From contig CAZZLK010000021.1 in NCBI GenBank assembly GCA_964655195.1, positions 3,377 through 67,376 on the forward strand: a DNA stretch of 64,000 nt. The letters are read 5' to 3'. The notes below the pieces were generated by a model. That model had not been told where the DNA came from. It did no database searches and saw only the letters and a program-made list of their open reading frames with translations. Both the position numbers and the translations under genes were made by a program. The DNA comes from an uncultured bacterium (GTDB lineage Bacteria > DUMJ01). Below, piece after piece: positions 201-27,211 of the stretch (positions within the stretch are counted from its first letter, which is position 1; every line of letters starts with the position of its first letter).

Positions 201-1376
201 GTGAAAAGATATATCAAATACTTTAATGCAGAGTCGGTAACTGAAGGACATCCGGATAAGATAGCTGATCAGATCTCTGATGCTATCCTAGATAGTTATT
301 TAGAGAAAGATCCAGAGTCGAGAGTTGCCTGTGAAACCTTAACTACGCTTGGATTGATCCATGTAACAGGAGAGATATCTAGTAGGGCAATGATAGATAT
401 AAACAAGGTAATAAGAAACACAGTAAAGGAAATAGGATATACTGATGCATCTTATGGACTCGATGCTGATAGTTGTGGAATACTTGTGTCTCTTAAAGAA
501 CAGTCTCCGGATATAGCTCAGGGCGTCATAAAGGACAAAGATATTGGTGCTGGAGATCAGGGACTTATGTTTGGTTATGCAACCAACGAAGCTATGGATA
601 TTATGGAAAGTGCTTCATATATGCCTACACCTATAATACTAGCTCATCGCCTAGCTTATAGACTGGCTGAGGTAAGAAAATCTGGCTTTCTTTCCTATTT
701 AAGACCCGACGGAAAGACTCAGGTCACGGTGGTCTATGATGGAGATAGACCGGTAAGGGTAGATAGGGTGGTCATTGCTGCACAACACGATCCTGACGTA
801 GATATGAACAAACTCAGAGAAGAGATTATAGAATATGTAATAAAGTATACAATCCCTAAAGAATGGTTAGATAAAGATACAAAGTACTATATAAATGCTA
901 CTGGAAGATTTGTAATCGGTGGACCGGCAGGAGATGCTGGACTTACTGGCAGAAAGATAATAGTGGATACCTACGGTGGAATGGCAAGACACGGAGGAGG
1001 ATGTTTCTCTGGTAAAGATCCTACCAAGGTAGATAGGTCTGCTGCTTATATGGCTAGGTATACTGCTAAGAACATAGTGGCTAGTGGATTAGCAGATAAG
1101 TGTGAAGTACAGGTGGCCTATGTGATAGGGGTAAGCGAACCAATCTCTCTATATGTAGAGACATTCAATACTGAAAAGGTTGACCCTGAAAAGTTAAACA
1201 GAGTAGTAAGAGAACTTTTTGACTTTAGGCCCAAGAGCATAATAGAAAATTTCAATCTCAGAAGGCCTATCTACAGAAAACTGGCAGCTTACGGCCACTT
1301 TGGAAGAATAGATCTGGATTTACCTTGGGAAAGGCTTGATAAAGTAGATGAATTAAAGAATGCCTTTAACATATGA
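201..1376 (+). CDS. metK: S-adenosylmethionine synthetase
   Basis: Hallmark MetK motifs [16 protein letters not shown] and [22 protein letters not shown]. Length 391 aa. GTG start at 201 with GGAGGTG 4 nt upstream. Confidence 0.95.
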
Positions 1377-3288
1377 TATTCTTATAGATAGAAATGCCCC
1401 GAAAGATTTGATTTTTTCTTATTCTTCGAATAACGTCCTCCGGATAGGAGATTATGTTGCGGTTCTCTTAAAGGGACATCTGGCGAAAGGTTATGTAATA
1501 AAAGAAAACAAGGAAGTATCTGTCCAAGACTCAAAGATGGTCTTGGACAGAATATTTGATGTGCCTTTAGTCTTACCCCATCTTTTAGATCTTGCATATT
1601 GGATTTCTGAGTATTATATATGTAATCTCTCTCAGGCATTAGCAACAGTAATTCCCCCAGAGATAAGGAATATAGATGTAAAATATGATGGTACCTTAAA
1701 AGTTAAGGTGCCAAAAACAAGAAGAAAGAAAAAGAAAAAAGGTTATGCAGGTTACATACCCCTTTCTGACTATGAAACTCCTCTTCTAGGGGAATACAGA
1801 AATCTTTTAGTAAAGCTTCCAATCGAAGAGAGGCTTAGTGTCTACTTGAAACTTATAGAAAAAGAAAGAGATAATGGCAAAGGAGTAGTTGTACTATTCC
1901 CCGAAGTAGATACCCTCCTAGCAGTAGAAGATAAGTTTAGAAAGGAATATGAAGGGGATATCGCCATGTTATACAGTGGACAGAGCCCTGCAGTAAAGAA
2001 TGAGGAATGGTGGCGTATAAGGTATGGCAAGGTTAAAATAGTCTTAGGAACCAGATCAGCCATATTTGCCCCACTAGAAAATCTAGGATTGATAATTATT
2101 GATGGGGAAGAGAGTGACAGCTATAAAGATGAGAGTAGACCTCTCTATGATGCTAGGACGATAGCTTACAGGATTCAAGAATTGTTAGGATGTAAGGTTA
2201 TATTTGGAAGCAGTACCCCTTCATTGGATACATATAAGAGGGTCACAGAGAACAGAATAAATATCATTACCGAAGATAGAACAAGGGATCTGAGTAATAT
2301 AAAATCAGTAAATATGAAAGGGAGAAGGGGTTTTCTCAGCAGAGAACTGATACATTATTGCAAGGTCTCCTTGGCTAGAAAAAAACAGATACTTATACTG
2401 GTCAATAGAAAGGGATATTTTACCCTTGAAGTCTGTAAGAATTGTGGGTATATCGAGAGATGCCCAAACTGTAATATTGCGCTAGTATATCATAAGGATG
2501 AAGGACTTGAATGTCACTACTGCGGATATAGTATAGATAAAATGGATCAGTGTCCAGAATGTGGGGGAAAAATGGAACTGTTTGGTTACGGTGTAGAGAG
2601 GATAGAAGAGATACTACAGAAGATATTCCCTAAAGCTAGAATAGCCAGAATGGATGCAGACCTTCCCACCAAAGAGATTAACGAGATATGGGAGAGATTC
2701 ATAAACGGGAATATAGACATTCTGGTTGGAACGCAGATGATAGCGAAGGGTTTTCGTCTCCCAAATGTTGCCCTAACTGGAATTTTAGCCTCAGACTTGG
2801 CTCTGAATCTACCTGACTTCAAAGTTAGCGAAAGAATCTTTCAGCTTATATATAGCTTGGCTGAACAAACAGGGAATAACAAATATTTAGTGATTCAGAG
2901 TATGCTTCCCAGTTATTATCCTATAAAGTATGCGAGCAGGTTGGATTATGAGAGCTTCTACAGATATGAATCTCAACTACGGAGGTCTCTTGGATATCCT
3001 CCCTATAGTCACATAGTAAGAATAGTCGTCTCCGGAAAAGATGAGGAGAGTGTAAAAACTATAGCGGCCTCTCTAGCTCTTGACATAGAGAGAAGATTGA
3101 GGATAGACTATTCAGGGCCTGCTAGATGTCCTTTCTATAGGATAAAAAAGACATTTCACTGGCATATTCTTTTGAAGATAAAAGACCTAACTGTAGACAT
3201 AATGAAAGTTGTAAAAGAACTTGTAGGGGCTTATAATTATAAAGACATTGGTATAATGGTAGACGTAGATCCTGTGTCTATGTTATAG
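1360..3288 (+). CDS. priA: Primosomal protein N' (PriA) homolog with degenerate ATPase/helicase motifs
   Basis: N-terminal 3' DNA-binding-domain-like region. Cys-rich zinc module [38 protein letters not shown]. PriA-like blocks GTRSAIF and GTQMIAKGF. Overlaps metK by 17 nt. No Walker A: [14 protein letters not shown] sits where GVTGSGKTEVYL is expected. The DEEH box reads DGEE at nt 2101-2112. The arginine-finger region reads AEQTGNNK. Confidence 0.85.
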
Positions 3289-3309: not shown

Positions 3310-3774
3310 ATGTCGGGAGTAGCGATAAGAATTTACGGGGATCCAGTTTTAAGGCAGAAGGCTGTTCCTGTAAATAAGATAGATAGAAGGATAAAGAGGC
3401 TTGTTAGATATATGGAAGAAGCTATGGAAAAGGCTAATGGGATTGGCTTAGCCGCTCCTCAGGTAGGAGTAAGTGAGAGGGTTATTATAGTAAAGATAAG
3501 ATCCCCTATAGTTGTAGTAAATCCAGTAATTACTTATATGGAGGGAGAAGAACTAGGAGAAGAGGGCTGTTTAAGTATTCCAAATGTCGTTGGAGATGTA
3601 AGTAGGGCAACTAGAATTATAGTTAAGGGATTAGATCTAAATGAGAGGGAGATAGAGATAGAGGCAAATAATCTTTCTGCTAGAGCATTTCAACACGAAA
3701 TTGATCATCTAGATGGCATACTATTTATAGATAGAGCCATATCTATAAGGAAGGTGGAAAAATCCTCAGAATAG
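3310..3774 (+). CDS. def: Peptide deformylase
   Basis: Motifs GIGLAAPQVG, EGCLSIP and QHEIDHLDG. 154 aa. GGAGGG SD upstream. Confidence 0.93.
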   Translation: MSGVAIRIYGDPVLRQKAVPVNKIDRRIKRLVRYMEEAMEKANGIGLAAPQVGVSERVIIVKIRSPIVVVNPVITYMEGEELGEEGCLSIPNVVGDVSRATRIIVKGLDLNEREIEIEANNLSARAFQHEIDHLDGILFIDRAISIRKVEKSSE

Positions 3775-4676
3775 TATTTTGGGGCACTCCAGAATTTGCT
3801 CTCCCATCTTTAGAAAGGTTAAAGGATAAGATATCCCTGGTGATCACTAAACCGGATAAACCTCAGGGGAGAGGATTAAAACTAAAGCCTTCTCCAGTTA
3901 AATCGAAGGCGTTAGAGCTTAATATACCTGTACTCTCTCCGGAAAAGTTGAGCGAGATAAAAGATAAACTTTCAGGGTTTGACCTTGGTATAGTGGTGGC
4001 TTATGGACTTATTATTCCAAAGAAGATAATAGATATGTTTCCAAAGGGTATTATAAATCTCCATCCATCTCTCCTTCCTAAATACAGGGGACCTGCTCCA
4101 ATACAGTGGGCAATAATGAATGGAGAAGAAGAGACTGGGGTTAGTATAATATACCTTACTGAAGAATTAGATGCTGGAGACATCATCTTACAGGAAAGAG
4201 TCAAAATCTTTCCAGAAGACACAACAGAAACTCTCTCTGAAAGGTTAAGTATGATTGGTGCAGAGGTACTGGAGAGGGCTATAGGACTGATAGAAACAGG
4301 TAGTATAAATCCTATCCCTCAGGAACTCCTAGGGACCGTATCCTATGCTCCAAAGATCGACCCGGAGATGGGTAAAATTATCTGGAATGCCAGGAGTAAA
4401 GACATCGTAAACAAGATTCGAGCCCTTACCCCCTGGCCTAAGGCATATTTCTACAGATGTGGATTAAGAATAAATATTTTAGAGGGGGAACCTTCTCCTA
4501 TAAAAGGAGAACCAGGAAGAGTCATAAGTGTTGAAGAAAAGGGGATATTAGTTGGGACTCAAGATGGAAGTGTGTGGATCAAAAAGGTCCAACCAGAAAG
4601 TAGAAAGGTCATCAGTGGATATGATTTTGCCAATGGTTATAGGATAAAAGAGGGAAGTTTTTTAGCAGATGAATAA
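3762..4676 (+). CDS. fmt: Methionyl-tRNA formyltransferase; proposed non-canonical ATC start
   Basis: The ORF track starts at an internal GTG (3840). The same frame is open from 3735 and encodes the canonical Fmt N-terminus (I)LRIVFWGTPEFALPSLERL. There is no ATG/GTG/TTG in that stretch. ATC at 3762 sits 4 nt after an AAGGAAGGTGG SD-like element and overlaps the def stop. Catalytic region HPSLLPKYRG is present. Confidence 0.8.
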   Translation: MLRIVFWGTPEFALPSLERLKDKISLVITKPDKPQGRGLKLKPSPVKSKALELNIPVLSPEKLSEIKDKLSGFDLGIVVAYGLIIPKKIIDMFPKGIINLHPSLLPKYRGPAPIQWAIMNGEEETGVSIIYLTEELDAGDIILQERVKIFPEDTTETLSERLSMIGAEVLERAIGLIETGSINPIPQELLGTVSYAPKIDPEMGKIIWNARSKDIVNKIRALTPWPKAYFYRCGLRINILEGEPSPIKGEPGRVISVEEKGILVGTQDGSVWIKKVQPESRKVISGYDFANGYRIKEGSFLADE

Positions 4677-5931: not shown

Positions 5932-6943
5932 TATCCTTGGGATAAATAGTGAGGAATTAAGAGATATCCTTATAGAGAAAGGATATGAGCCATACAGAGT
6001 TCGCCAGATATTGGAATGGATATATGATAAAGCAGTATTGGATTTTTACTCGATGAGTAATCTACCAAAGGAATTACGAAATTTTCTATCCAGTAACTTT
6101 TCCGTAATACCATTTGATCTGGTGACTTATGCCCAAGATGAGGAAACAATCAAGTTTGTCTTTAAAACTGAAGATAATCTCACATTTGAATCGGTAGTAA
6201 TATTCCATCATAACAGGATAACTCTCTGTCTCTCCTCCCAGATAGGGTGTCCCATAGGGTGTAAATTCTGTGCTACTGGTGAATCTTTTCATAGAAATCT
6301 TACATATGAAGAGATAATAGGACAGTATATCTTTGCTAGAAGTTATGTAAAAAAAGATATACGCAGTATAGTATTTATGGGGATGGGAGAACCTTTTCTG
6401 AATGAGGAGAATGTATTCAGAGCGATAGATACATTTATCCAGGAGTTAAATATATCTCCAAGGCACATAACTGTTTCTACATCTGGAATCCCTCGAGGGA
6501 TAATAAATCTGGCTCACAAACATCCTAAGGTCAGACTGGCATTCTCTTTATGGACCCCTGACGAGAGAAAAAGAGAAGGGCTAGTGCCTTTAGCAAATAC
6601 TTATAAGTTAGAAATTATTCTAAGAAGTCTAAAAGAATACGTAAGTATAACTGGTAACAGGATTTCAGTCGAATATACACTGCTCAAAGGAATTAATGAT
6701 GATATAGATGATGCCCATAGACTTGTAGAGCTTTTTAAGGATGTCCCTGTATTTTTCAATGTAATACTTTACAATCCTAAGGACAGAGATACTGAAGCCT
6801 ATAGGACATCTGTAAAAGAAGCCTTAAGATTTGTTGATCTGATAAAAAGTTTAGGGAAAGAGGCTTATCTGAGGATAAGTAAGGGAGAAAGGATCTCAGG
6901 AGCCTGTGGTCAATTGAGGACCGCCTATGAGAGATCTAGGTGA
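5924..6943 (+). CDS. rlmN: 23S rRNA/tRNA adenine-C2 methyltransferase RlmN (radical SAM)
   Basis: CxxxCxxC cluster SQIGCPIGCKFCATG. C-terminal catalytic Cys context GACGQL. Confidence 0.9.
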   Translation: MRSILGINSEELRDILIEKGYEPYRVRQILEWIYDKAVLDFYSMSNLPKELRNFLSSNFSVIPFDLVTYAQDEETIKFVFKTEDNLTFESVVIFHHNRITLCLSSQIGCPIGCKFCATGESFHRNLTYEEIIGQYIFARSYVKKDIRSIVFMGMGEPFLNEENVFRAIDTFIQELNISPRHITVSTSGIPRGIINLAHKHPKVRLAFSLWTPDERKREGLVPLANTYKLEIILRSLKEYVSITGNRISVEYTLLKGINDDIDDAHRLVELFKDVPVFFNVILYNPKDRDTEAYRTSVKEALRFVDLIKSLGKEAYLRISKGERISGACGQLRTAYERSR

Positions 6944-8411
6944 AAGATTTATTATCTTAGAAGAGTCTAAGGGAGATAGGATAAGAGCTTATGACAAACT
7001 ATTAACAAGGTTTGTTAGTCTAAGACAGATAAGAACTAATCTCGGAGTAGGTAAGGTTATAGCTGTATTGGATAGAATTATAAATCTAAATGATGAGTTC
7101 CTAAAAGTTATTGGGTATCAGGCGTTAGATAATGGGATACTATATGCTATAGAAGAGATCCCTCCACAGGAAAATGTAGAGATAAGAAACAATATAAAAG
7201 AGCTATTACAGGTTACAAGGTATATAGGTAGGATGTTTGAGTATCTTAATGCCCAAGGTTTAAGAATAAAGTTGCCAGATATAGACAAGATATATAAAGA
7301 AAGCGACATAAGGTATCTTGTATCTCCCCTAGATTTGATAGACATAAATAATCCGGAAAAAGTGCAGAGTAAGGAGGAGATATTAAATATTCTCGCATCC
7401 TTCTTTATGAACTATGCCCCCCAATCGTTAAGGGATACTTTGTCTTCACTTATTGAGAGAAATATAATATCTAAGCTTAATAATGTAGAGACGCTGGTAA
7501 ATATGTTGAATACATTCATCCTTCAGGAGGAACGAATGAGAACTAAGTCGGACAGTAAAAAGATTGCTGAAGAGGTAAAAAGAGAGAAGAAAAGAATAAG
7601 TCCCTGGGTCTTTATCATAACAGTACTTCTTGTCCTTGCTGGTATTAGCGTCTGGTTATTATATTCTCTGGGAGAAAGATTATTCTTCTCCGAAGGGACA
7701 ATACCAGACGTTATAGTCCCTGATATAATAAATAGGCCCCTTCCTGAGGCATATAGTATTCTTAAGGCTTCAGGGCTTAATATAGAGATCTCTGGATTGG
7801 AATACAGTAGCGCCATTCCTTCCGGGAATATCATCTCGCAGGACCCTAGTGGAGGATTAAAAGTAAAAGCGGGAAGGAATGTAAAAGTAATAATAAGTAA
7901 AGGGATCGAGCTTGTTAATGTTCCCAATATCGTAGGGCAGGAATTAGGTAATGCTAGGAAAATCCTGGAATCAGTAGGTTTGAAGATAGGGGATATAATA
8001 GAAACCCCTACCAGGACAGTCCCAAATGGTATAGTACTCTCACAAAACCCCAAATATGGTAGTATTACTAGTAAAAATTCTCTAGTAGCTGTAGAGATAT
8101 CCAAACATCTCCAGAGTAATATGCCTAATTTAATAGGCAAGACCCAAGAGGAAGCTGAAAGTTTATTAAGATCTCTCGGTCAGTACATACTTGTGATTAA
8201 AGAGAGAGAAAGCGATAATCCCGGGGTTGTCATATCTCAAAATCCCCCGGCTAATACATCCTTACTGCAGGAGATTCCCAGGATAGAGATTACAATAGGA
8301 ATTCCTAAAAAGGCTATCCCTCAACCTCCATCACATCCAAATCTAGAAGAGGTACCAATCGAAGGGCAGACAGAGACCTCACCCAATACTGAGACATTGC
8401 CATCAGAGTAG
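6927..8411 (+). CDS. PASTA-domain membrane protein with degenerate N-terminal Ser/Thr-kinase-like domain (PrkC/PknB-derived pseudokinase)
   Basis: One TM helix (ISPWVFIITVLLVLAGISVWLLY) followed by three PASTA-like repeats (e.g. PDIINRPLPEAYSILKASGLNIEI...NIISQDPSGG..KVKAGRNVKVIISKG). The N-terminal ~150 aa aligns to kinase subdomains but reads RFIILEESKGD in place of the Gly loop, VSLR for VAIK, RIKLPDID for HRD and SPLDLI for DFG. It occupies the prkC slot after rlmN. Confidence 0.7.
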   Translation: MRDLGERFIILEESKGDRIRAYDKLLTRFVSLRQIRTNLGVGKVIAVLDRIINLNDEFLKVIGYQALDNGILYAIEEIPPQENVEIRNNIKELLQVTRYIGRMFEYLNAQGLRIKLPDIDKIYKESDIRYLVSPLDLIDINNPEKVQSKEEILNILASFFMNYAPQSLRDTLSSLIERNIISKLNNVETLVNMLNTFILQEERMRTKSDSKKIAEEVKREKKRISPWVFIITVLLVLAGISVWLLYSLGERLFFSEGTIPDVIVPDIINRPLPEAYSILKASGLNIEISGLEYSSAIPSGNIISQDPSGGLKVKAGRNVKVIISKGIELVNVPNIVGQELGNARKILESVGLKIGDIIETPTRTVPNGIVLSQNPKYGSITSKNSLVAVEISKHLQSNMPNLIGKTQEEAESLLRSLGQYILVIKERESDNPGVVISQNPPANTSLLQEIPRIEITIGIPKKAIPQPPSHPNLEEVPIEGQTETSPNTETLPSE

Positions 8412-12982: not shown

Positions 12983-13477
12983 ATGATAAGGTTCACTTTT
13001 CCTACATTTATATTCCAGATTATAAACTTCTTGGTCACCCTGTACTTGATATATAGGTTTGTCTATAACCCTATAGCCAGGTATATATCTAAAAGGCAGG
13101 AGAGTATAGAGAGTGAGCTTGAGAGGGCTAAAGCTGAGAGAGAATCAGCTGAGGCCCTGAAATTAGCGTATGAAGAGAAGTTAAAAGAGGCACAAAGACA
13201 GGCGGAAGAGATTATAGAAAGGGCTAAACTTCAAGCAGAGGAAGAAAGAAAACAGATATTAGATAGGGCCCAGAGGGAGGCTCAAGCTCTGTTTAACAAA
13301 GCTCAGAACGAACTTCTCCTAGAGCGAAAACATGCGATAGAAAAATTTAAAGAGGAAATTACAGAAATAGTACTCGACCTGGTATCAAAACTTATTATGG
13401 TAGAATTCAACAGTAAGGATAAGATTAGAGAGAAAATACTGGAAAAGTATATGGAGGGGATAAAGAGTTATAAATGA
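12983..13477 (+). CDS. atpF: F0F1 ATP synthase subunit b
   Basis: N-terminal TM helix followed by a long charged coiled-coil (E/K/A/R-rich). 164 aa. Confidence 0.85.
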
Positions 13478-15518
13478 GTGCCACCTCAATTTCAAGTACC
13501 ATAGACGTCTTAACCGAAGAGTTGGTTAAAACAGCCATAAGAGAAGATAGAGAAGAGGATTATAAGTCTCTTCTTAGAAATCTTATAGATGAACTTACCT
13601 ATAACCCTGAACTGAGTAATCTATGGGAAAAAGGGGATGTTATTGAAAAGAAGAGGGTTATAAGAGAGAGATTTTCAGACGCCTCTCCTAGATTCTTTAG
13701 CTTTGTCTCCAAAATTATAGATTCCAATTTGGAGGATTCTCTCTACAGCATCTATCTCAGATTTATTGAGTTATTAGATCACAACCAGTTTTCAAAGGTA
13801 AGAGTAGAATTACCATTTCCTCTGTCGGAAGATAAGATAGAAAGTTTAGAATCATTCCTCTCCAATCTTCTTAACAGGGATGTTGTATGCTCCATTCATA
13901 TTAACGAGAACATTATAAATGGAATTAAGGTAGATCTAGAAGAAGAAGTGATAGACTTATCTCTAAAGACTCAACTAGATATCCTAAAAGAAGATCTGGA
14001 AAACATAGCGGTAGAAGATTCTTTCTATGAGATATTAGAAAAGATCAAAGAAAAAGTATCTTCTTTCTCTGTAAAGCCCTTAAGACTCTCTCTGGGACGA
14101 GTAGAAAGTATAAGAGACTGTGTAGTAAATGCCTCTGGGTTAAAGAATGCAAGATACGGGGAGTTGGTATTATTTCCTGATAACGTCTACGGAATGGTGA
14201 TGAGTTTAGAAGAAGATTCTACAGGTATTATACTTTTAGGGCCATCGGATAAGATCTCCGCAGGAGATACCATAAGAACAACCGGCAGGGTGTTAGAAGT
14301 CCCTGTAGGAGAAGAGCTTATAGGAAGGGTGATAGATCCCCTCGGCAGAGCATTAGATGGAGGTCCCCCTATAGAAGCTACTAAGACCAGAAGAATAGAG
14401 AATCTTGCTCCAACAGTAGTTGAGAGAGAACCGGTAAATACCCCCCTGCAGACAGGATTAAAGGTGATAGATGCATTATTTCCCATTGGAAGAGGACAGA
14501 GGGAATTAATAATAGGTGATAGACAGACGGGAAAGACCGCTATAGCTATTGATACCATCCTCAATCAGAAGAATGAAGATGTTATCTGTATATATGTAGC
14601 TATAGGACAAAAGGCAACAACGGTTGCTGAGATAGTCAAAATACTGAAAGAGAGAGGAGCGATGGATTATACAATTATCGTTTCTGCATTCGCCAGCGAA
14701 CCAGCATCTCTACTATATATAGCTCCATACGCAGGATGCGCTATAGGTGAAGAGTTTATGTATCAGGGAAGAGATGTATTGATAATATACGATGATCTAT
14801 CTAAGCATGCAAAAGCTTATAGAGAGATCTCCCTCCTTTTAAAGCGGCCCCCGGGCAGAGAGGCTTATCCTGGAGATATCTTTTACTTACATGCAAGACT
14901 TCTGGAAAGATCGGCAAAACTTAACAGCTATCTTGGTGGGGGATCTTTAACCGCGTTACCTATAGTAGAGACTCAGCTAGGAGATATCTCTGCCTATATA
15001 CCAACAAATCTAATTTCTATTACTGATGGACAGATATATCTGGATGCCTCGCTCTTTCATGAAGGAATTAGACCAGCAGTGGACATAGGACTCTCTGTAT
15101 CTAGAGTAGGTGGCAATGCCCAGATTAAAGCTATGAGGCAGGTAGCCGGAAGATTGAGGCTAGATCTTGCACAGTATCGAGAGGTAGAGACATTTGCCCA
15201 GATATCTACAGATATAGATCCCGCTACTAGGGGGTTATTAGAAAGAGGAGCTAGGATAAGAGAGATACTGAAACAGCCACAGTACAGTCCTATGGAAGTG
15301 ATAGATCAGGTTATAGTTCTATTTACCGTAACCAGAGGATATATAGATGAGATAGCTATAGAAGAAGTTTCTCATTTTCAGAATGGGCTATTAGATTATA
15401 TAAACAGAAACTACAAAGTTTTAAAAGATAAAATAAAGTCAGAAGGTTTAACCGAAGAAAATATAACAGAACTGACTAGGGCTATATTTGAATTTAAAAG
15501 GACATTTAGTAGCGAGTA

Positions 15519-15519
<1 letters not shown>
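13474..15519 (+). CDS. atpA: F0F1 ATP synthase delta (OSCP)-alpha in-frame fusion protein
   Basis: 681 aa. Residues ~1-180 align to delta/OSCP: [47 protein letters not shown] resembles E. coli delta [45 protein letters not shown]. From ~181 it is canonical alpha: [27 protein letters not shown] and Walker [19 protein letters not shown]. No stop or start codon lies between the parts; the junction ..[19 protein letters not shown].. is near nt 14011. Confidence 0.85.
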
Positions 15520-19445: not shown

Positions 19446-21395
19446 GTGAGATTCATAGTCTTTAATATGATTAAAGAAAGGAGGGCTAAATTGACTAGGA
19501 AGATAATACTGATATTAGCTTTGCTTATCTTCTTCTGTATTATCTTTAATAGCTATGTCTTATCAGGCGAAAAGATTAAGATATCTGGTATTGAAATCCA
19601 GGGGAACCGTAATATCCCTAAAGAAGAGATAATAAAGATACTCGACCTTCCAGAAGAGATAGACGAAGACATAGTTAGATCAGGACTACAGAGGCTCTTA
19701 AATACAGGATACTTTTCCAATATTGACGCTAGTATGAAAGTGGATGGAAGTAAGTATATCTTAGTTATTAGCGTAAGTGAAGCTCCAGTCTTTAAAGAGA
19801 TTAAAGTGGTGGGTAATAAAGATATAGATACTGCAGAGATAGTAAACCTTATCTCTTTAAAGTCAGGCACCACTATAAATCTTATCACCTTAAACCAGGA
19901 TTTAGGTAAGATTGCAGAACTCTACAAGAGTAGAGGATACATAGGAGCAAACTTCCAGGTCAATATAACTGAAGATGGAATAATAGTCATAAATATAAAC
20001 GAGGGCCCAACTGTTTCAGGTTTTATATTTAAAGGAAACACTGTAATAAAGTCGGAAGATCTGGATAAAGAGCTAGAAAAATACAGAGGAAAGACCTTGA
20101 ATACAAATCTATTAAAGGATATGGCACTAAATATTCAGGAGTTCTATAATAAGAAAGGATATCCTGCCTGTGTTATTCTCAATGCGTACAGCGATACAAA
20201 TGGAGTAGTGACATTTGAAATAGGTGAAGGTAAGATTGCAAAGATAGTTATCGATGGAAATAAAAAGACAAAAGACTACGTAATTCTCAGGGAGATGGAA
20301 ACCAAAGCTGGAGACGTTCTTAATACTACTAAAATTCAAAAAGACCTTCAGAAGATATTTAACCTTGGTTATTTTTCAGATGTAAATGCAGATATCAAGT
20401 CTGCCGAAACCCCTGGTGAAATTATCCTAACAGTCAGGGTAGTGGAGCAACTCACTGGACAGGCAAATGGTGGTATAGCCTATAGCACCGCCGAGGGTTT
20501 TTCTATAATATTAGGAATTAAAGACTCAAATCTATTGGGAACAGGAAGAGATTTAGGTCTGTATCTAAATATAGGAGTTACCGCTCGTGATATAACACTA
20601 AATTATACCGAGCCGTATGCTTTCGGAACCACAGGAACCTTAAGTACTTATCTAGTATGGAGGAAGGCAGATAATACAGATATAATAGAGAACACATCAA
20701 TTAACTATTCGGAGGATAGAAAGACCCTTGAATTGACGTTGACTAAACCGATAGATATAAACCTAAAGGGTACGATAGGATTCTCTTATAATGATATAAC
20801 TTATCAGGCTAAAGAGGATGTAACACTACCAGAGATGATAAAGTCTGGTATCTCTAGCGCCCTAGTCCTGGGAGTTGCCAAAGATACAAGAGATGTAATC
20901 TTAAACCCTATGAAGGGGGACTACTACTCACTAAATATAAAGCAGGGCGGAGGAATATTCGGTGGAGACTTCAATTTTACAAGACTCAATATCGACCTAA
21001 GATGGTATTTCCCAACATCAGACAAAGATACACTTGCTTTAAACTGCACCTTGGGATTAGGTTTTGGTGAGCTACCATATATAGAGAAGTTCAGTGTTGG
21101 AGGGGTAAATTCTGTAAGGGGACTTCCAGAAAACTGGAAAAAGTCAGACTATTTAGAACTTATAAGTCTTGAATATAGAAACAAGATACAGGATAATGTA
21201 TTTGGTGTGATATTTTTAGACTTAGGAAATGGATGGAAGAGTGGAGAAACGATAAATCTTACAGATCTATATACTGGAATAGGCCTTGGGTTGAGAATAA
21301 TGGTCCCTCCTATGGGGTTATTAAGACTAGATTATGGCTGGGGTAGTTATGACTGGCAGGGAAGATTCTATTTTAGTGTGGGACAAAAATTCTAA
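19446..21395 (+). CDS. bamA: Outer membrane protein assembly factor BamA/Omp85 (POTRA repeats plus C-terminal beta-barrel)
   Basis: Signal/TM segment, POTRA-like repeats (ISGIEIQGNRNIPKEEI...) and a C-terminal barrel ending ..GRFYFSVGQKF. Confidence 0.8.
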   Translation: MRFIVFNMIKERRAKLTRKIILILALLIFFCIIFNSYVLSGEKIKISGIEIQGNRNIPKEEIIKILDLPEEIDEDIVRSGLQRLLNTGYFSNIDASMKVDGSKYILVISVSEAPVFKEIKVVGNKDIDTAEIVNLISLKSGTTINLITLNQDLGKIAELYKSRGYIGANFQVNITEDGIIVININEGPTVSGFIFKGNTVIKSEDLDKELEKYRGKTLNTNLLKDMALNIQEFYNKKGYPACVILNAYSDTNGVVTFEIGEGKIAKIVIDGNKKTKDYVILREMETKAGDVLNTTKIQKDLQKIFNLGYFSDVNADIKSAETPGEIILTVRVVEQLTGQANGGIAYSTAEGFSIILGIKDSNLLGTGRDLGLYLNIGVTARDITLNYTEPYAFGTTGTLSTYLVWRKADNTDIIENTSINYSEDRKTLELTLTKPIDINLKGTIGFSYNDITYQAKEDVTLPEMIKSGISSALVLGVAKDTRDVILNPMKGDYYSLNIKQGGGIFGGDFNFTRLNIDLRWYFPTSDKDTLALNCTLGLGFGELPYIEKFSVGGVNSVRGLPENWKKSDYLELISLEYRNKIQDNVFGVIFLDLGNGWKSGETINLTDLYTGIGLGLRIMVPPMGLLRLDYGWGSYDWQGRFYFSVGQKF

Positions 21396-21404
21396 GTATG
21401 GGAG

Positions 21405-21881
21405 TTGATGTATAAAATGGATAAGAGGTTATTAATTTTGGCATTGATTATAGGTGCAGTTGGTATTCTTCTTTGGGGGCTGAGTATCCCGAGGTATGGA
21501 TTTGCGCTAGACACATTTAAGATTGGGTATGTAGATATAAACAAAGTCATAGAGAATCATCCCAGGATCGAAAAGGTAAAGAAGGATATAAATGACTTTG
21601 CTATGAAAACTAAGGCAGAATATCAGAAACAGTTAGATGAAGCGGTAAAAGATAAAACAGCTGTTGAGGCTCAACAACTAAAGGCGGAATATGAAGCCAG
21701 ACTAAATCAAGTTGTAGCTCAAAGACAACAGGAGATGTTAAAGCCAATACTCGATGACATTAAATTGGCAGTGAGAGATATATCTAAAAAAAGAGGCATA
21801 GATATAGTATTAAGGAGTGAGATAGTAATAACTGGTGGTATAGACATTACTGATGATGTCATAAAGGCTATAAAGAAATGA
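21405..21881 (+). CDS. skp: OmpH/Skp-family periplasmic chaperone
   Basis: 158 aa, signal peptide then a long Q/K/E-rich helical region. Canonical position between bamA and lpxD. Confidence 0.7.
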   Translation: MMYKMDKRLLILALIIGAVGILLWGLSIPRYGFALDTFKIGYVDINKVIENHPRIEKVKKDINDFAMKTKAEYQKQLDEAVKDKTAVEAQQLKAEYEARLNQVVAQRQQEMLKPILDDIKLAVRDISKKRGIDIVLRSEIVITGGIDITDDVIKAIKK

Positions 21882-22888
21882 ATTATAAGTTAGAGGAGAT
21901 AGCCAGATTTATAAACGGCAAACTTTTTGGGCCCCCAGACATGGTGATAACTGGAGTAAATTCTCCAGAGTTAGCAGGTGAGAAGGAAATATGTATCATC
22001 TATGATGAAAAGTTTGTAGATGTGATAAAAAATAGAAATGTTGGAGCAGTCATAATCAGAGAAGGATTAAAAGTTGATAAGCCTCATATAGTAGTATCAG
22101 ACCCTAGAGCTATTATGCCAGTTATTCTAAATCTTTTTGCTAAAAAAAAGGAGCTTCGAGGTATAGATAAGTCTGCTATTGTAGGAGATAACTGTACTAT
22201 TCCTGAGAGCTGTTTTATAGGTCCCTATGTAGTTATAGGAGATAGGGTAAAGCTTGGAGAAAGAGTTATCATTATGGCTGGAAGTAAGATTGGAGACGAA
22301 GTTATCATAGGGGATGACTCTTTTATCGGCTACAATGTAATAATAGACGATAGTAGTGTTATAGGGAAGAGGGTCAAAATTCAACACGGAGCGGTTATCG
22401 GGAAAGAAGGCTTTGGCTTCTACAGGGGTCAGGAAGGTTATATAAGGATTCCTCACCTTGGCAATGTGGTAATAGAAGATGATGTAGAGATCGGAGCTAA
22501 TAGTGTGGTTGATAGAGCTACTCTTGGATCCACTATTATTAAGAAGGGTACGAAGATAGATAGCCTGGTATTGGTAGGACATAATGTAAAGGTAGGGGAA
22601 GATACTGCTATAGCTGGACAAAGTGGTGTAGCAGGAAGTTCAGAAGTAGGCAATAGATGTATGATAGGAGGACAGGTAGGCATAGCAGATCACCTCAAGG
22701 TTGGAGATAATACAATAATCTTTGCCAAGACAGGGGTTATAGGAGATATACCTTCAAATTCTGTTGTATCTGGTATACCGGCAAGACCTCATAGAGAGTG
22801 GTTAAAAGCACAGGCTATTTTATTAAAACTACCAAAAATAATCAGGCAGTTAGGGATAAAGGATGTGGCAGACGACAGTAAAGAGTAA
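21878..22888 (+). CDS. lpxD: UDP-3-O-acylglucosamine N-acyltransferase
   Basis: Left-handed beta-helix hexapeptide repeats throughout. Position after skp. Confidence 0.88.
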   Translation: MNYKLEEIARFINGKLFGPPDMVITGVNSPELAGEKEICIIYDEKFVDVIKNRNVGAVIIREGLKVDKPHIVVSDPRAIMPVILNLFAKKKELRGIDKSAIVGDNCTIPESCFIGPYVVIGDRVKLGERVIIMAGSKIGDEVIIGDDSFIGYNVIIDDSSVIGKRVKIQHGAVIGKEGFGFYRGQEGYIRIPHLGNVVIEDDVEIGANSVVDRATLGSTIIKKGTKIDSLVLVGHNVKVGEDTAIAGQSGVAGSSEVGNRCMIGGQVGIADHLKVGDNTIIFAKTGVIGDIPSNSVVSGIPARPHREWLKAQAILLKLPKIIRQLGIKDVADDSKE

Positions 22889-23678
22889 AGTAGAGATAAG
22901 AGGGGTTGGACTGCATACTGGAAAAGAGAGTAGGATTATAATATCTCCAGCATCCGCAGATACAGGTATAGTGTTTAACTTTGCAAAGAATAGCTTCACA
23001 AAGATCAAAGTGGATAGTATGGTCATCTCTACCAATAGAGGGACTATTTTGGCTCATAACGAGTACTCCATATATACAGTTGAGCATATCCTTTCTGCCC
23101 TTAATGGGCTAGAGATAGATAATGTGGAGATCATTGTAGATGGTGAAGAGATACCATCCTGTGATGGAAGTGCTAAGACCTTCGTAGACAAGTTAAAAGA
23201 AGCAGGGATAGAAATATTGGATAAAAAAAGGAAAGTAATTCAGCTTCCGGAACCTGTATGGATATTTAATGGAGAGAAGGGAATATTTGCACTACCCAGC
23301 GATAGACTCTCTATTTATTACACGATAGAATTTCCTCGGATAGGAAAACAGTGGATATTCTATGAACATAATCCCTTGAGATATGAGCTGGAGATTGCAC
23401 CTGCCAGGACATTTGGTTTTGAAGAGGAGATAGAGATGCTAATCACTGAGGGTTTAGCAAAGGGAGGAAACCTTCAGAATTCCGTTATAGTTGGGAAAAA
23501 TGGATACTCGTCACCACTCAGATATCCAGATGAGTTTGTAAGGCATAAACTCTTGGACCTTATGGGAGACATATATTTGTTAGGGAAACGTATTAATGCT
23601 ACAATATTTGTAGTAAAAGGTGGTCATAATCTTCACGTAGAATTAGTAAAGAAGATAAAAGAGGTGATCGATGATTGA
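22863..23678 (+). CDS. lpxC: UDP-3-O-acyl-N-acetylglucosamine deacetylase
   Basis: N-terminus ..KVEIRGVGLHTGKESRIIISPA and zinc-ligand context. 271 aa. Confidence 0.92.
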   Translation: MWQTTVKSKVEIRGVGLHTGKESRIIISPASADTGIVFNFAKNSFTKIKVDSMVISTNRGTILAHNEYSIYTVEHILSALNGLEIDNVEIIVDGEEIPSCDGSAKTFVDKLKEAGIEILDKKRKVIQLPEPVWIFNGEKGIFALPSDRLSIYYTIEFPRIGKQWIFYEHNPLRYELEIAPARTFGFEEEIEMLITEGLAKGGNLQNSVIVGKNGYSSPLRYPDEFVRHKLLDLMGDIYLLGKRINATIFVVKGGHNLHVELVKKIKEVIDD

Positions 23679-24162
23679 TAGAGAGATTTCAACTTTGAAC
23701 ATATATGAACTCTTAAATATACTACCCCACAGATATCCATTCTTATTGGTGGATAAGATTATAGAATACGAAAAGGGGAAGAGGGTAAAGGGTGTAAAGA
23801 ATGTGACCATAAATGAACCATATTTTCCTGGACATTTTCCGGAATTCCCGATTACGCCAGGTGTTATCATTATAGAAGCTATGGCACAGATAGGTGGGCT
23901 CCTTTTACTAGAAGAGGCAAAAGAAAAGGATGAGCTGGCAATATTAAGTGGGGTAGATAAAGTCAGGTTTCGTAGAATGGTAAGACCCGGAGATCAGATA
24001 GTGATAGAGGCAGAAATTCTTCAAAGAAAGATTAATTTTTGCAAATTAAAGTGTACCGCATACGTAGAGAGTAATGTGGTAGCAGAAGGTGAGTTATTAA
24101 TAGCGTTATACAAGGAGGATTCTATCCGTGACATATATACATCCAACAGCGATAATAGATGA
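23671..24162 (+). CDS. fabZ: 3-hydroxyacyl-[ACP] dehydratase
   Basis: Hot-dog fold with YFPGHFPEFPITPGV and EAMAQIGG motifs. Confidence 0.9.
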   Translation: MIDREISTLNIYELLNILPHRYPFLLVDKIIEYEKGKRVKGVKNVTINEPYFPGHFPEFPITPGVIIIEAMAQIGGLLLLEEAKEKDELAILSGVDKVRFRRMVRPGDQIVIEAEILQRKINFCKLKCTAYVESNVVAEGELLIALYKEDSIRDIYTSNSDNR

Positions 24163-24952
24163 GTCGGTCAAGTTAGGAATCGATGTGGAAATTGGGCCCT
24201 ATGTAGTAATAAAACATGATACTGTTATAGGAAGTGGTACTAAGATCGATGCCCATTGTATTATAGGCCCATGGGTCACTATAGGGAGTAAGTGTGAGAT
24301 ATACGGAGGATGTTCTATAGGTGCTCCGCCTCAAGACATAAGATATAAAGGTGAAAGAAGTTTTGTAATAATTGGAGATAATAACATCCTCAGAGAGTTT
24401 GTTACTATACATAGAGCAACAGGAAAAGACAAAGCCACTATAATAGGAGATGGCAATTTCCTTATGGCATATTCCCATATAGCCCATAACTGTAAACTTG
24501 GTAACGGGATAACTATGGCTAATTCTTCTAATCTGGCAGGTTATGTAGAAGTATATGATAAGGCTGTTATAGGAGGAATAGTTGGGATACACCAATTTGT
24601 CAGGATAGGAAGGTTAGCTATGGTAGGAGCCTGCTCTAAAGTTGTTCAGGATGTCCTTCCATTTTCTCTTGTAGATGGACATCCGGCCAAGGCTTACGGT
24701 ATAAATGTAGTTGGACTTAGGAGAGCAGGATACTCACCAGAGATCAGGAGTATCCTACAGAGGGCATTTAAAATTTTCTACTTTGCCCATCCCAACAGAT
24801 CCAAGTCGCTTACTATGCTTTTAGAGGAGCTTGACAGTATACCTGAAGTTGAAGAGATGGTAGAATTTATCAGAAACAGTAGAAGGGGGATCGTAAAAGC
24901 AGCTAAAGAAGCTTTACAATGGGACGTTCAGACATTCTTAGAAAATATGTAA
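24128..24952 (+). CDS. lpxA: Acyl-[ACP]--UDP-N-acetylglucosamine O-acyltransferase
   Basis: Hexapeptide-repeat beta-helix plus the C-terminal helical domain typical of LpxA. 274 aa. Confidence 0.9.
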   Translation: MTYIHPTAIIDESVKLGIDVEIGPYVVIKHDTVIGSGTKIDAHCIIGPWVTIGSKCEIYGGCSIGAPPQDIRYKGERSFVIIGDNNILREFVTIHRATGKDKATIIGDGNFLMAYSHIAHNCKLGNGITMANSSNLAGYVEVYDKAVIGGIVGIHQFVRIGRLAMVGACSKVVQDVLPFSLVDGHPAKAYGINVVGLRRAGYSPEIRSILQRAFKIFYFAHPNRSKSLTMLLEELDSIPEVEEMVEFIRNSRRGIVKAAKEALQWDVQTFLENM

Positions 24953-26091
24953 GAATTGCTATTCTGGCAGGTGAGGTATCCGGAGATATACAGGGGTCTT
25001 ATCTTGCTAATGGACTGTTGAACAATGATTATGGAATAAAAGTAGCACTCTGTGGTATTGGGGGGGAATATATGAGAAATAGGGGAGTCAAGTTATGGGA
25101 GGAAACAGCCAGGTATGGTTCAGTTGGTTTTTGGGAACCAGTAAAATTTCTGCCTAACTGGCTTAAGATTTACAATAAAGTTAAAGAAATGCTAAAGAAA
25201 GAAGAATTAGATGGGGTAATTTTTATTGATAATCAGGGATTTAATCTTCAGGTAGCCAAGTTTATCAAGAGAGAAAGACCTGATTTGTCTATGTTCTATT
25301 ACTTTTCTCCACAGGCATGGCTTTGGGGTAGTGGAATAGCCAAACAGGTAAGAGACCTTGGAATTAAAGTTTTGGCAGTTTTTCAGAAAGAAGCAGAGGT
25401 ATACAGGGAGAATAACGTAGAGGTATATTTCGTAGGACATCCTCTTTTAGATATAGTAGAGGCAAAGGTCCCCTCAGAAAAGATAAGAGAAAGTTTAGGG
25501 ATAAAGGATGACCTTCCCCTTATCGGAATATTTCCTGGAAGTAGACAACAGGAGGTCATTTCTCTATTACCAATTATTTTAGAAGGGATCGCTCCTCTAA
25601 TAAATAGAGAGGCTTACTTTTATATAGCCAGTGCATCTGATTTTACCTACAAGTGGATTGGAGAGATCTTAGAAAAAAAGAATCTATATATACCAATTAT
25701 CTCCAACAATAGATATGACTATATGAATGCCTCTAAACTCCTAATTATGGCGTCTGGAACGGCAGTCTTAGAGGCATCTCTTATAGGTATCCCGGTTATA
25801 GCTCTATATAAACTATCGTGGATTTCCTGGAATATTGCAAAAAAGATAGTTCATTACCCCTATGCTACTATGCCGAATATCTTACTTGAAAAGCCGGTTG
25901 TCATAGAGCTGCTTCAGAAGGATGCTAATCCTGTAAGGTTAAGGGAGACTGTAAGAGAGTTGCTGGGTGATAGTAAAAAGATAGAAAGCATCAAAAAAGA
26001 TCTGGAAGGGGTAAGAGAAGTATTGGGAGAGAAGGGAGCGATAAAGAGAGCGGTCGAATTTATCTTTAAGGGGCTGAACTGTATTGAGTAA
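24919..26091 (+). CDS. lpxB: Lipid-A-disaccharide synthase (glycosyltransferase family 19)
   Basis: N-terminus IAILAGEVSGDIQGSYLANGL aligns with LpxB LVAGETSGDILGAGLI. 390 aa. Confidence 0.85.
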   Translation: MGRSDILRKYVRIAILAGEVSGDIQGSYLANGLLNNDYGIKVALCGIGGEYMRNRGVKLWEETARYGSVGFWEPVKFLPNWLKIYNKVKEMLKKEELDGVIFIDNQGFNLQVAKFIKRERPDLSMFYYFSPQAWLWGSGIAKQVRDLGIKVLAVFQKEAEVYRENNVEVYFVGHPLLDIVEAKVPSEKIRESLGIKDDLPLIGIFPGSRQQEVISLLPIILEGIAPLINREAYFYIASASDFTYKWIGEILEKKNLYIPIISNNRYDYMNASKLLIMASGTAVLEASLIGIPVIALYKLSWISWNIAKKIVHYPYATMPNILLEKPVVIELLQKDANPVRLRETVRELLGDSKKIESIKKDLEGVREVLGEKGAIKRAVEFIFKGLNCIE

Positions 26092-27211
26092 GTTGATTAT
26101 GCTCACCAACAGTCCTGGAGAAATAGGAGGATGGTTTCTACCTTTAGCAAAAGCTATAAAAGAGACTTATCCTGCCATAGATATAATAGCTATTCTTTTG
26201 CCATGTCAGTATGCAAGTGGAACTGAATATAGGGTACTTTTAGAGTCTGGATTATTCTCTAGGGTGATAGATAGAAAAGAACTACTGAAATTTTTTACAA
26301 CTCCGGATTTAAATGACAAAAGGATACTTATTTTGCAGCTTGGAGGAGACCCATACTGGGGAACCCTGCTCAAGATAAGATTAAAGAGTAAGCTCTTTAT
26401 ATATTCTGATAGCCTAGTCCATACAAATCGATGGGCAGATAAGATTCTTCTGAGCGATTCAAGATTCTCTAGAGGGAGAGAAAACGAAGTCGTAGTTGGT
26501 AATCTAATCCTTGAGAGTATAGACAGAGATATCACAGTAAACGGATCTAGTATAGCATTCTTACCTGGTAGTAGGCCATATGGACTCAAGTTGATACTCC
26601 CTCTAATGCTTGAAACCGCTGAGATATTAAGGAAGACTTCAGATAATTCGATAAAATTTATTGTTTCACCATTTATCCCTCTTGAAAGTCTGAATAGATA
26701 TGTTCCAGCTAATTTCGCATTAGAGCAAGATAGGATAATTTCTGGCTCAGGAAACGTCTATATACTCGAATATGGAGGGTCTTGGGATTGGGTGAAAGAT
26801 GTGAGATTGGCTATAAATATTCCTGGAACAAATACCTTACAACTGGCGCTTTTGGGTATACCTCAGATAACTATACTCCCACTTCAATGGGCTGAATATA
26901 TCCCTCTAGAGGGTATAATGGAGTGGATAAGTAGGGCACCTCTTATAGGTAAGCCTATAAAAAGAAAAATAATTTATAGACTTATTCCTAAAATTAGGTT
27001 TATAGCCCTCCCCAATATAGTCTCCAAAAGGAAGATTACAGAGGAACTTATAATGGAGATTACACCGGAACTTCTAGCTCAAAAGATATTAGAACTTCTA
27101 AAAGATCAAGAACGACTAGATAAAATGAAAGAGGAGCTAAAGAGTATAGATTTCCTAAGCGGAGCCGGAAGAAATATAGCTAAAATTATAGGTGAAGAAC
27201 TCTGTGAGTAA
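26084..27211 (+). CDS. Divergent LpxB-like glycosyltransferase family 19 paralog
   Basis: 375 aa. LTNSPGEIGGWFLPLAKAIKETYP resembles the LpxB N-terminus. AFLPGSRPYGLKLILPLMLETAEIL and ALPNIVSKRKITEELI align with LpxB [24 protein letters not shown] and SLPNLLAGRELVKELL. Confidence 0.6.
   Translation: MSKLIMLTNSPGEIGGWFLPLAKAIKETYPAIDIIAILLPCQYASGTEYRVLLESGLFSRVIDRKELLKFFTTPDLNDKRILILQLGGDPYWGTLLKIRLKSKLFIYSDSLVHTNRWADKILLSDSRFSRGRENEVVVGNLILESIDRDITVNGSSIAFLPGSRPYGLKLILPLMLETAEILRKTSDNSIKFIVSPFIPLESLNRYVPANFALEQDRIISGSGNVYILEYGGSWDWVKDVRLAINIPGTNTLQLALLGIPQITILPLQWAEYIPLEGIMEWISRAPLIGKPIKRKIIYRLIPKIRFIALPNIVSKRKITEELIMEITPELLAQKILELLKDQERLDKMKEELKSIDFLSGAGRNIAKIIGEELCE

Follow-up and report, generated by a model that had tools for sequence, protein, structure and literature searches.

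A PriA predicted to lack its ATPase motor in an uncultured relative of Dictyoglomus

PriA proteins without a working motor have been described both in nature and in the laboratory. Pseudohelicase PriA with poor motifs I and II was reported across Deinococcus-Thermus (Lopper, Boone & Morrow 2015, PMC4504706). The PriA of Deinococcus radiodurans, in which the Walker A lysine is replaced by arginine, shows negligible unwinding and no measurable ATPase activity, and binds single-stranded DNA (Kd about 215 nM), forks (about 109 nM) and DnaB (PMC4504706). In Escherichia coli, PriA K230R (the priA300 allele) is devoid of ATPase, helicase and translocase activity and supports restart (PMC5778457, PMC4504706). 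It assembles primosomes and allows near wild-type growth via PriA-PriB, whereas the PriA-PriC route needs the helicase (PMC5778457). Here, we analyzed the priA gene carried by a 64,000-nucleotide stretch of DNA, hereafter referred to as the window, from an uncultured bacterium (GTDB lineage DUMJ01; assembly GCA_964655195.1, contig CAZZLK010000021.1, positions 3,377 to 67,376 of the forward strand). By sequence criteria its product, the window PriA, is a PriA pseudohelicase of the Deinococcus-Thermus kind. A sequence-only reading of the window had claimed that all ATPase/helicase motifs of this protein are lost, and had mentioned a lack of helicase activity in Deinococcus PriA as well; the latter statement is correct (PMC4504706).

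The gene and the modules retained in its product are the following.

1360..3288, plus strand: priA coding sequence, 642 amino acids plus stop (from the list of open reading frames, ORFs)
1399..1656, plus strand: 3′ DNA-binding domain (3′BD), retained; residues 14-99, PF17764 E = 1.1e-12, predicted local distance difference test score (pLDDT) about 87-96
2434..2562, plus strand: cysteine-rich region (CRR), PF18319; C359, C362, C368, C371, C385, C388, C398 and C401
3001..3273, plus strand: PriA C-terminal domain (CTD), retained; residues 548-638, PF18074 E = 1.1e-15

Membership of the window protein in the PriA family is solid. It scores 431.7 bits on TIGR00595, the NCBIfam PriA equivalog, whose cut-off is 230.35. 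This match spans residues 161-639 only, beginning just past the place of motif I, and in a phmmer search of PDB sequences E. coli and Klebsiella PriA align from residue 158 onward only. Pfam detects PriA_3primeBD (14-99), Zn_ribbon_PriA (368-391), Helicase_C (401-473) and PriA_C (548-638), and no DEAD/ResIII domain, unlike in every canonical match. The eight cysteines (four CxxC, forming two zinc sites in helicase lobe 2) are invariant in alignments of the window clade (the window PriA with its close relatives), of canonical PriAs and of Dictyoglomus PriAs. In an AlphaFold2 model built from a 43-sequence alignment (mean pLDDT 88, predicted template-modelling score 0.89) both RecA-like lobes, the zinc region and the CTD are folded with confidence. 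The best Foldseek matches of the model in PDB are E. coli PriA 8fak_H, with a template-modelling (TM) score of 0.80, then 6dcr, 6dgd and 4nl4; the structural matches include E. coli and Klebsiella PriA, with Mfd and RecQ far lower. The hallmarks by which PriA had been recognised from the letters (a 3′BD-like N-terminus, a zinc module, and GTRSAIF and GTQM.AKG blocks) were all found, as was the equivalog match. Compared with canonical PriA (TIGR00595; structures 4NL4, 6DCR, 6DGD and 8FAK), the window PriA has the same domain order, the same eight-Cys region, motifs Ib, III, IV and V, a similar predicted fold and the same position beside def-fmt. In contrast, it lacks motifs I and VI as well as the motif II catalytic Glu, and it carries a basic disordered linker. 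There is no winged-helix domain, as in many short canonical PriAs of about 660 amino acids.

Motifs were tabulated from an alignment (A3) of the window PriA, 12 close relatives and 30 canonical PriAs, and E. coli residue equivalences were taken from BLASTP against E. coli K-12 PriA.

1711..1743, plus strand: Lys/Arg-rich patch, residues 118-128; P118 and R121 invariant in the clade
1804..1848, plus strand: motif I (Walker A), lost; residues 149-163, core LPIEERL; canonical G(V/I)T(G/A)SGKTE(V/I)Y
1885..1923, plus strand: motif Ia, altered; FPEVDTL, canonical VPEI(A/S)LT (VLVPEIALTPQ)
2047..2067, plus strand: motif Ib, kept; GTRSAIF, canonical G(T/A)RSA(I/V)F
2101..2112, plus strand: motif II remnant; DGEE, canonical DEE(H/Q), catalytic Glu replaced by Gly
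2116..2169, plus strand: equivalent of the aromatic-rich loop, partly kept; canonical SYKQEDxPRYHARDVA, with Y255, K256, P261, Y263 and R266 kept
2206..2223, plus strand: motif III, kept; GSSTPS, canonical GSATPS
Motif IV (plus strand), kept; NRKGY, canonical NRRG(F/Y)
2728..2763, plus strand: motif V, kept; VGTQMIAKG, then FRLP; canonical VGTQM(I/V)AKG
2860..2883, plus strand: motif VI remnant, lost; AEQTGNNK, residues 501-508, opposite AGRAGRG; canonical Q(V/L)AGR(A/S/T)GRG

Residues 149-163 can be aligned position by position both to canonical LLHGVTGSGKTEVYL and to E. coli LLAGVTGSGKTEVYL. Arg158 takes the place of E. coli Lys230 and Leu159 that of Thr231, while the three P-loop glycines correspond to Lys152, Ile155 and Glu157; no glycine is left in motif I. 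The AlphaFold2 model has a strand at 148-152 and then a helix that starts at residue 155, which leaves about two residues for the phosphate-binding loop and no P-loop. When the whole protein was checked, the GxxxxGK[ST] pattern was found nowhere else, so the absence of Walker A claimed in the sequence-only reading is borne out. The claimed changes of DEEH to DGEE at 2101-2112 and of AGRAGR to AEQTGNNK also stand, and each string quoted in that reading occurs where it had been placed; at motif VI, both arginines of GRAGR are gone and there is a 3-residue deletion. Among clade members the former position of the motif II catalytic Glu (249) is occupied by G or E, a variation that fits relaxed catalytic constraint. 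The replacement residues P154, E156 and R158 at motif I are invariant in 13 clade sequences, as are Asp248, Glu250, Glu502 and Lys508. In the aromatic-rich-loop region, a loop for which a role in E. coli PriA is described in PMC5175346, Arg and His are replaced by Leu and Asp. The canonical helix preceding motif I, with L(T/S)xEQ..A, is absent (alignment A1) and a 31-residue segment stands instead. The Lys/Arg-rich patch lies in the sole long low-confidence segment of the model (about 120-146, pLDDT 51-71). The Lys run described previously is thus present; it is not inserted, however, but replaces the pre-motif-I helix segment. The change of KGHHFP to KGFRLP had been listed as a further loss. 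The string is there, at residues 463-468, but was rejected as evidence, since canonical PriAs vary at this place (KGLDF, KGHDF, KGFDF, KGWDF).

Thus, four elements on which ATP hydrolysis depends are gone: the glycines, Lys and Thr of the P-loop, the motif II catalytic Glu, the arginine fingers and the pre-motif-I helix. The loss strikes the elements of ATP binding and hydrolysis, with the superfamily 2 DNA-contact elements largely kept; the claim that all motifs are lost holds for motifs I and VI and for the catalytic Glu of motif II, and fails for Ib, III, IV and V. In A3, SGKT, GRxGR and DEE[HQ] are present in each of the 30 canonical PriAs, and both GxxxxGK[ST] and GRxGR were found in 70 of 72 PriA ORFs from a sample of GTDB species genomes of many phyla. 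The loss of motifs in the window PriA is far beyond chance.

The loss is shared by close relatives. A word-indexed search returned 15 proteins at 53-99% identity, 13 of them full-length at 642-643 amino acids, and a DEAD match was found in none of the 15 bar one extra precomputed PF00270 entry (P0009). The N-terminus MPLxY is common to them. Identity then drops abruptly to 35-38%, the level of canonical PriAs, all of which have PF00270 and PF04851. In an exhaustive HMMER profile search of 1.84 billion cluster representatives, which gave 25,076 PriA-like ones, a single 50%-identity representative stands for the whole clade (1205 bits), and the match that follows it scores 491 bits. A scan of GTDB species genomes with the window PriA as a single protein found nothing, and a scan with the clade alignment gave, among the matches listed, only canonical PriAs at no more than 38% identity. 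The metK-priA-def-fmt-rsmB-rlmN-PASTA-fumAB-upp-wecB-atp order is kept in relatives with 76%, 72% and 53% PriA identity, and the metK-priA gene string is present in loci L081, L082-84 and L089. Relatives down to 53% identity therefore share the loss together with the synteny.

Selection on the gene was estimated by the Nei-Gojobori method against three relatives. The dN/dS values were 0.08 for L089 (dN 0.134, dS 1.67), 0.11 for L081 (dN 0.175, dS 1.62) and 0.135 for L082 (dN 0.379, dS 2.80); with dS of 1.6-2.8 near saturation, these ratios are rough. Against L089, pN/pS was 0.19 in lobe 1, 0.19 in the 3′BD and 0.20 in the CTD, with the linker alone relaxed at 0.47. The priA gene is under purifying selection and lobe 1 is as constrained as the 3′BD and the CTD. 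An independent Logan assembly from an unrelated run (SRR7540026, L088) differs by 11 nucleotides in priA and by none in residues 147-300; the motif loss is not a sequencing error.

The window encodes BamA, OmpH and LpxD/C/A/B, which indicates that the organism has an outer membrane with lipid A. Deinococcus-Thermus bacteria are not known to have lipid A. Relatives of the window DnaE are 76-100% identical, one of them labelled "Dictyoglomi bacterium"; the next are those of Dictyoglomus (54-55% identity, same length of 1127 amino acids) and of Firmicutes (50-54%). In a neighbour-joining tree of 119 DnaE proteins, a sample of top matches only, the window clade has a bootstrap of 100/100 and its union with the Dictyoglomus group 84/100. 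Within this sample, the host is placed as an uncultured lineage sister to Dictyoglomus.

The D. thermophilum locus (L086) was reached via its RsmB orthologue. Its gene order is gmk-rpoZ-priA-def-fmt-x-rsmB-rlmN-PASTA. The PriAs of this organism and of another Dictyoglomaceae genome compare as follows, with D. thermophilum before the slash where the two differ.

L086:5767-7875: D. thermophilum PriA, 702 amino acids; Pfam matches only to 3′BD, zinc ribbon and PriA_C
L090:3777-5894 (metagenome-assembled genome GCA_039630385.1): Dictyoglomaceae PriA, 705 amino acids, 51.5% identical to D. thermophilum PriA
Motif I: ESRDERWKTY / ENRRERWEYY
Motif Ia: FPT
Motif Ib: STSKG / STGKG
Motif II: DQEE / EEEE
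Motif IV: NRLGY
Motif V: VGTRLIEPW / VGTSLIVPW
Motif VI: lost, 4-residue deletion

With motifs I, Ia, Ib, II, IV, V and VI all altered, the PriA of cultured Dictyoglomus is still more eroded than the window PriA. Pfam finds neither DEAD nor Helicase_C in it. As in the window clade, in the Dictyoglomaceae Arg stands in place of the Walker Lys and a hydrophobic residue in place of Thr, and motif VI is lost. Immediately before this Arg, both Dictyoglomaceae proteins have Glu, and the window clade has Glu, Lys, Asn or Asp. The likeness extends to the eight Cys of the CRR, the 3′BD, the CTD and the priA-def-fmt...rsmB-rlmN-PASTA order. The Dictyoglomaceae proteins differ from the window PriA in their length of 702-705 amino acids, in the erosion of Ia, Ib, IV and V, and in having no Helicase_C match. 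PriA identity between the window clade and Dictyoglomaceae is 25-27%, compared with 55% for DnaE and 38% for RsmB; PriA evolved fast, particularly in Dictyoglomaceae. Judged by its motifs, the trait is fixed in the uncultured sister lineage and more eroded in D. thermophilum and the other Dictyoglomaceae genome. No paper pairing Dictyoglomus or its uncultured sister lineage with PriA was found in the literature searched.

The window PriA resembles D. radiodurans PriA in its poor motifs I and II, the Lys to Arg change, the retained DNA-binding modules and the lineage-wide loss, and the predicted consequence is the same: no ATPase or helicase, with a role in restart and loading kept. The two differ in lineage, since DnaE groups the window with Dictyoglomus (84/100), and in lpxA/B/C/D and bamA, which the window carries. 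The window PriA has lost the glycine-rich loop in full, together with the Thr, both arginines of motif VI and the helix that precedes motif I; erosion may go further than in Deinococcus-Thermus, whose motifs were compared by the paper's description only. In E. coli priA300 (K230R; K230A and K230D alleles also exist), the change is the same as that at R158 and occupies the same aligned position. It is, however, an engineered single substitution in an intact motor, dependent on PriB, while the window PriA is natural and multiply eroded.

About 9 of the 149 next-best representatives in the profile search also lack key residues, a frequency (~6%) that is likely an overestimate of the true one since the query profile was built from degenerate sequences. 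Their motifs read as follows.

P0122: VAG---EKRWQIYL, DEEED, motif VI lost
P0132: GKE, DGEE, motif VI kept
P0142: AQAKT, motif VI lost
P0145: SGRIEVYI, Lys replaced by Arg
P0220: GKM, IYEEH, motif VI lost
P0227: motif I kept, motif VI lost
P0254 and P0257: motifs I and VI lost
P0268: YSAKT, motif VI lost

These representatives come from metagenomes, most of them in clusters found in more than one data set. The gene for P0122 (L091:942-2921) stands in a different context, priA-recX-alaS-ruvX-mltG. Together, the nine cases suggest that the PriA motor was lost recurrently, and hint at its loss in several further lineages.

We consider it likely that the window PriA, like D. radiodurans PriA and the priA300 product, is an ATPase-dead scaffold that recognises forks and loads the helicase. 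The sequence-only reading had come to the same view, and the motif loss, the kept modules, the selection and the operon speak for it, the loss of ATPase being a prediction. The canonical site would neither bind nor hydrolyse ATP, and there would be no translocation and no unwinding. Abandoned (stalled or repaired) forks would be recognised via the 3′BD, motifs IV and V of lobe 2, the zinc region and the CTD, with further, non-specific contacts to DNA perhaps made by the Lys/Arg-rich linker. The protein would then nucleate reloading of DnaB, the replicative helicase, through protein-protein contacts and without unwinding. The lagging-strand template would be exposed because forks are already gapped, by remodelling of the single-stranded DNA-binding protein SSB, or by another helicase.

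Several catalytic motifs struck together are what gene decay produces. Pseudogene decay, or an artefact of assembly or sequencing behind the motif loss, nevertheless has a practically negligible chance: the ORF runs uninterrupted through 642-643 amino acids in 13 relatives down to 53% identity, dN/dS is about 0.1, the lobe-1 DNA is identical in an independent assembly, the operon position is conserved and the model is of high confidence. It is very improbable, too, that the window PriA is still an ATPase or helicase that uses non-canonical residues, for example Arg158 for the Walker Lys, Glu156/157 or Glu250/251 as the base and Lys508 as an arginine finger. Such an enzyme would account for the invariance of D248, E250, R158, K508 and motifs III-V in the clade, and for purifying selection on lobe 1. 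However, K230R alone kills the ATPase of E. coli PriA, and D. radiodurans PriA with the same Arg is inactive. No P-loop glycine remains, nor does the Mg-ligand Thr; in the predicted structure the helix takes up the loop; position 249 varies between G and E in the clade; and both motif VI arginines are gone with a deletion. Recruitment to a job other than restart (as a structure-specific DNA-binding regulator or a recombination factor), with restart left to other proteins, would agree with the fast evolution of PriA (25.5% identity to that of Dictyoglomus, against 55% for DnaE and 38% for RsmB), with clade-specific invariant residues at the dead site and with the new basic linker. It appears improbable, though less so than an active enzyme. 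Every module with which E. coli PriA recognises forks and assembles primosomes (3′BD, CRR and CTD) is kept, and the gene still stands in its ancestral priA-def-fmt place. Fork and DnaB binding persist in the D. radiodurans pseudohelicase, and no alternative restart gene was seen within the 64 kb searched.

Shared loss is a separate matter. One ancestral loss is the simplest reading for both Dictyoglomota branches, and a pseudohelicase PriA was probably ancestral to the phylum. Convergence, that is, independent loss of the motifs in the window clade and in Dictyoglomaceae, is the less likely course but keeps an appreciable minority chance. The PriA tree is without deep resolution; the Dictyoglomaceae proteins (702-705 amino acids) have an extra segment at the place of the winged helix that the 642-residue window clade lacks; the two groups differ in the extent of erosion; and the about 9 further, unrelated-looking degenerate representatives show that loss recurs. 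Convergence must, on the other hand, explain why an acidic-acidic-Arg-hydrophobic string replaces S-G-K-T in both groups (E-E/K-R-L/I/V in the window clade, D/R-E-R-W in Dictyoglomaceae), why both have a deletion in motif VI, and why the organisms are sisters by DnaE. A number of points weigh against an ATPase-dead scaffold inherited from a common ancestor. The loss of ATPase is deduced from motifs alone, and a second, weaker nucleotide site, never located, was proposed for E. coli PriA (PMC5778457). The E. coli helicase-dead allele depends on PriB (PMC5778457). A Pfam sweep of window ORFs of at least 150 amino acids, made as a check for compensating helicases, found no RecG, Rep/UvrD, DnaB, DciA or DnaC; the same sweep gave no PriB, although no search aimed at PriB was made. 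A second, canonical priA copy could lie outside the 64-kb window. As to shared ancestry, the window PriA is 25.5% identical to D. thermophilum PriA and 36.6% to a canonical PriA, and in neighbour-joining trees of PriA, made with and without lobe 1, all deeper nodes have less than 10% bootstrap. A grouping of degenerate PriAs in the point tree was set aside as possible long-branch attraction, nothing beyond the clade being supported.

The phenomenon of a motor-less PriA and its likely consequence are known already; what is new is the phylum, how deep the erosion goes and the hint that such loss recurs. With the window PriA taken as a pseudohelicase, Dictyoglomota would be the second phylum to have one, hitherto described only in Deinococcus-Thermus. 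A broader proposal, about which we are doubtful, is that loss of the PriA motor is recurrent, affecting the whole phylum Dictyoglomota and several further uncultured lineages, and that the dead pocket has been rebuilt as a new, selected structural element. An invariant Pro-x-Glu-x-Arg would extend the helix, with Glu502 and Lys508 invariant in the motif VI remnant, and the rebuilt pocket could lock the two lobes, e.g. by mimicking a nucleotide-bound, loading-competent state. If this is true, the universal, essential role of PriA would be fork recognition and helicase loading, the motor being optional. Further motor losses would strengthen the view that the core, indispensable task of PriA is to recognise forks by their structure and to recruit the replicative helicase, rather than to unwind. 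D. thermophilum is a cultured, genome-sequenced thermophile, and its PriA is open to direct expression and assay. Natural, strongly selected motor-dead sequences could be used to map the loading surfaces of PriA and to ask what replaces unwinding.

The immediate neighbours of priA are the following.

201..1376, plus strand: metK, upstream neighbour of priA and first of the metK-priA-def-fmt-rsmB-rlmN-PASTA string
3310..3774, plus strand: def (peptide deformylase), 22 nucleotides downstream of priA

The start of priA overlaps the 3′ end of metK by 17 nucleotides. Farther along the string, at about 3759-3840 (plus strand), the reading frame of Fmt already encodes the conserved N-terminus (ILRIVFWGTPEF...) before the first ATG/GTG/TTG is reached. 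The fmt gene (methionyl-tRNA formyltransferase) seems to use as its start an ATC/ATT codon that overlaps the def 3′ end. The fmt call in L081 likewise starts at ATT, and the L082 and L089 calls are shortened instead. After rlmN, at 6927-8411 (plus strand), there is a 494-amino acid protein with three PASTA repeats, whose N-terminal ~250 residues have no kinase or other Pfam match even at E = 1. A 494-495-amino acid PASTA protein is conserved in the clade (L081, L082, L089), while Dictyoglomaceae have only a 176-187-amino acid PASTA protein there. In the Firmicutes gene order, the slot after rlmN is the place of the PASTA kinase PrkC.

The window has a G+C content of 38%. GC skew tracks in sign the coding strand of gene blocks, being positive at 1-32 kb and negative at 32-36, 40-42 and 54-64 kb. 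An Rfam scan of the whole window gave no family at the gathering threshold and no tRNA, rRNA or riboswitch. In the atp operon, a 681-amino acid ORF at 13474-15519 (plus strand) contains ATP synthase delta/OSCP (residues 17-175) and a complete alpha subunit (217-673), an apparent atpH-atpA gene fusion. The outer-membrane/lipid A cluster bamA-ompH-lpxD-lpxC-fabZ-lpxA-lpxB is located at 19446-27211 (plus strand), with a second ORF after lpxB, at 26084-27211, that has a weak C-terminal LpxB match only.

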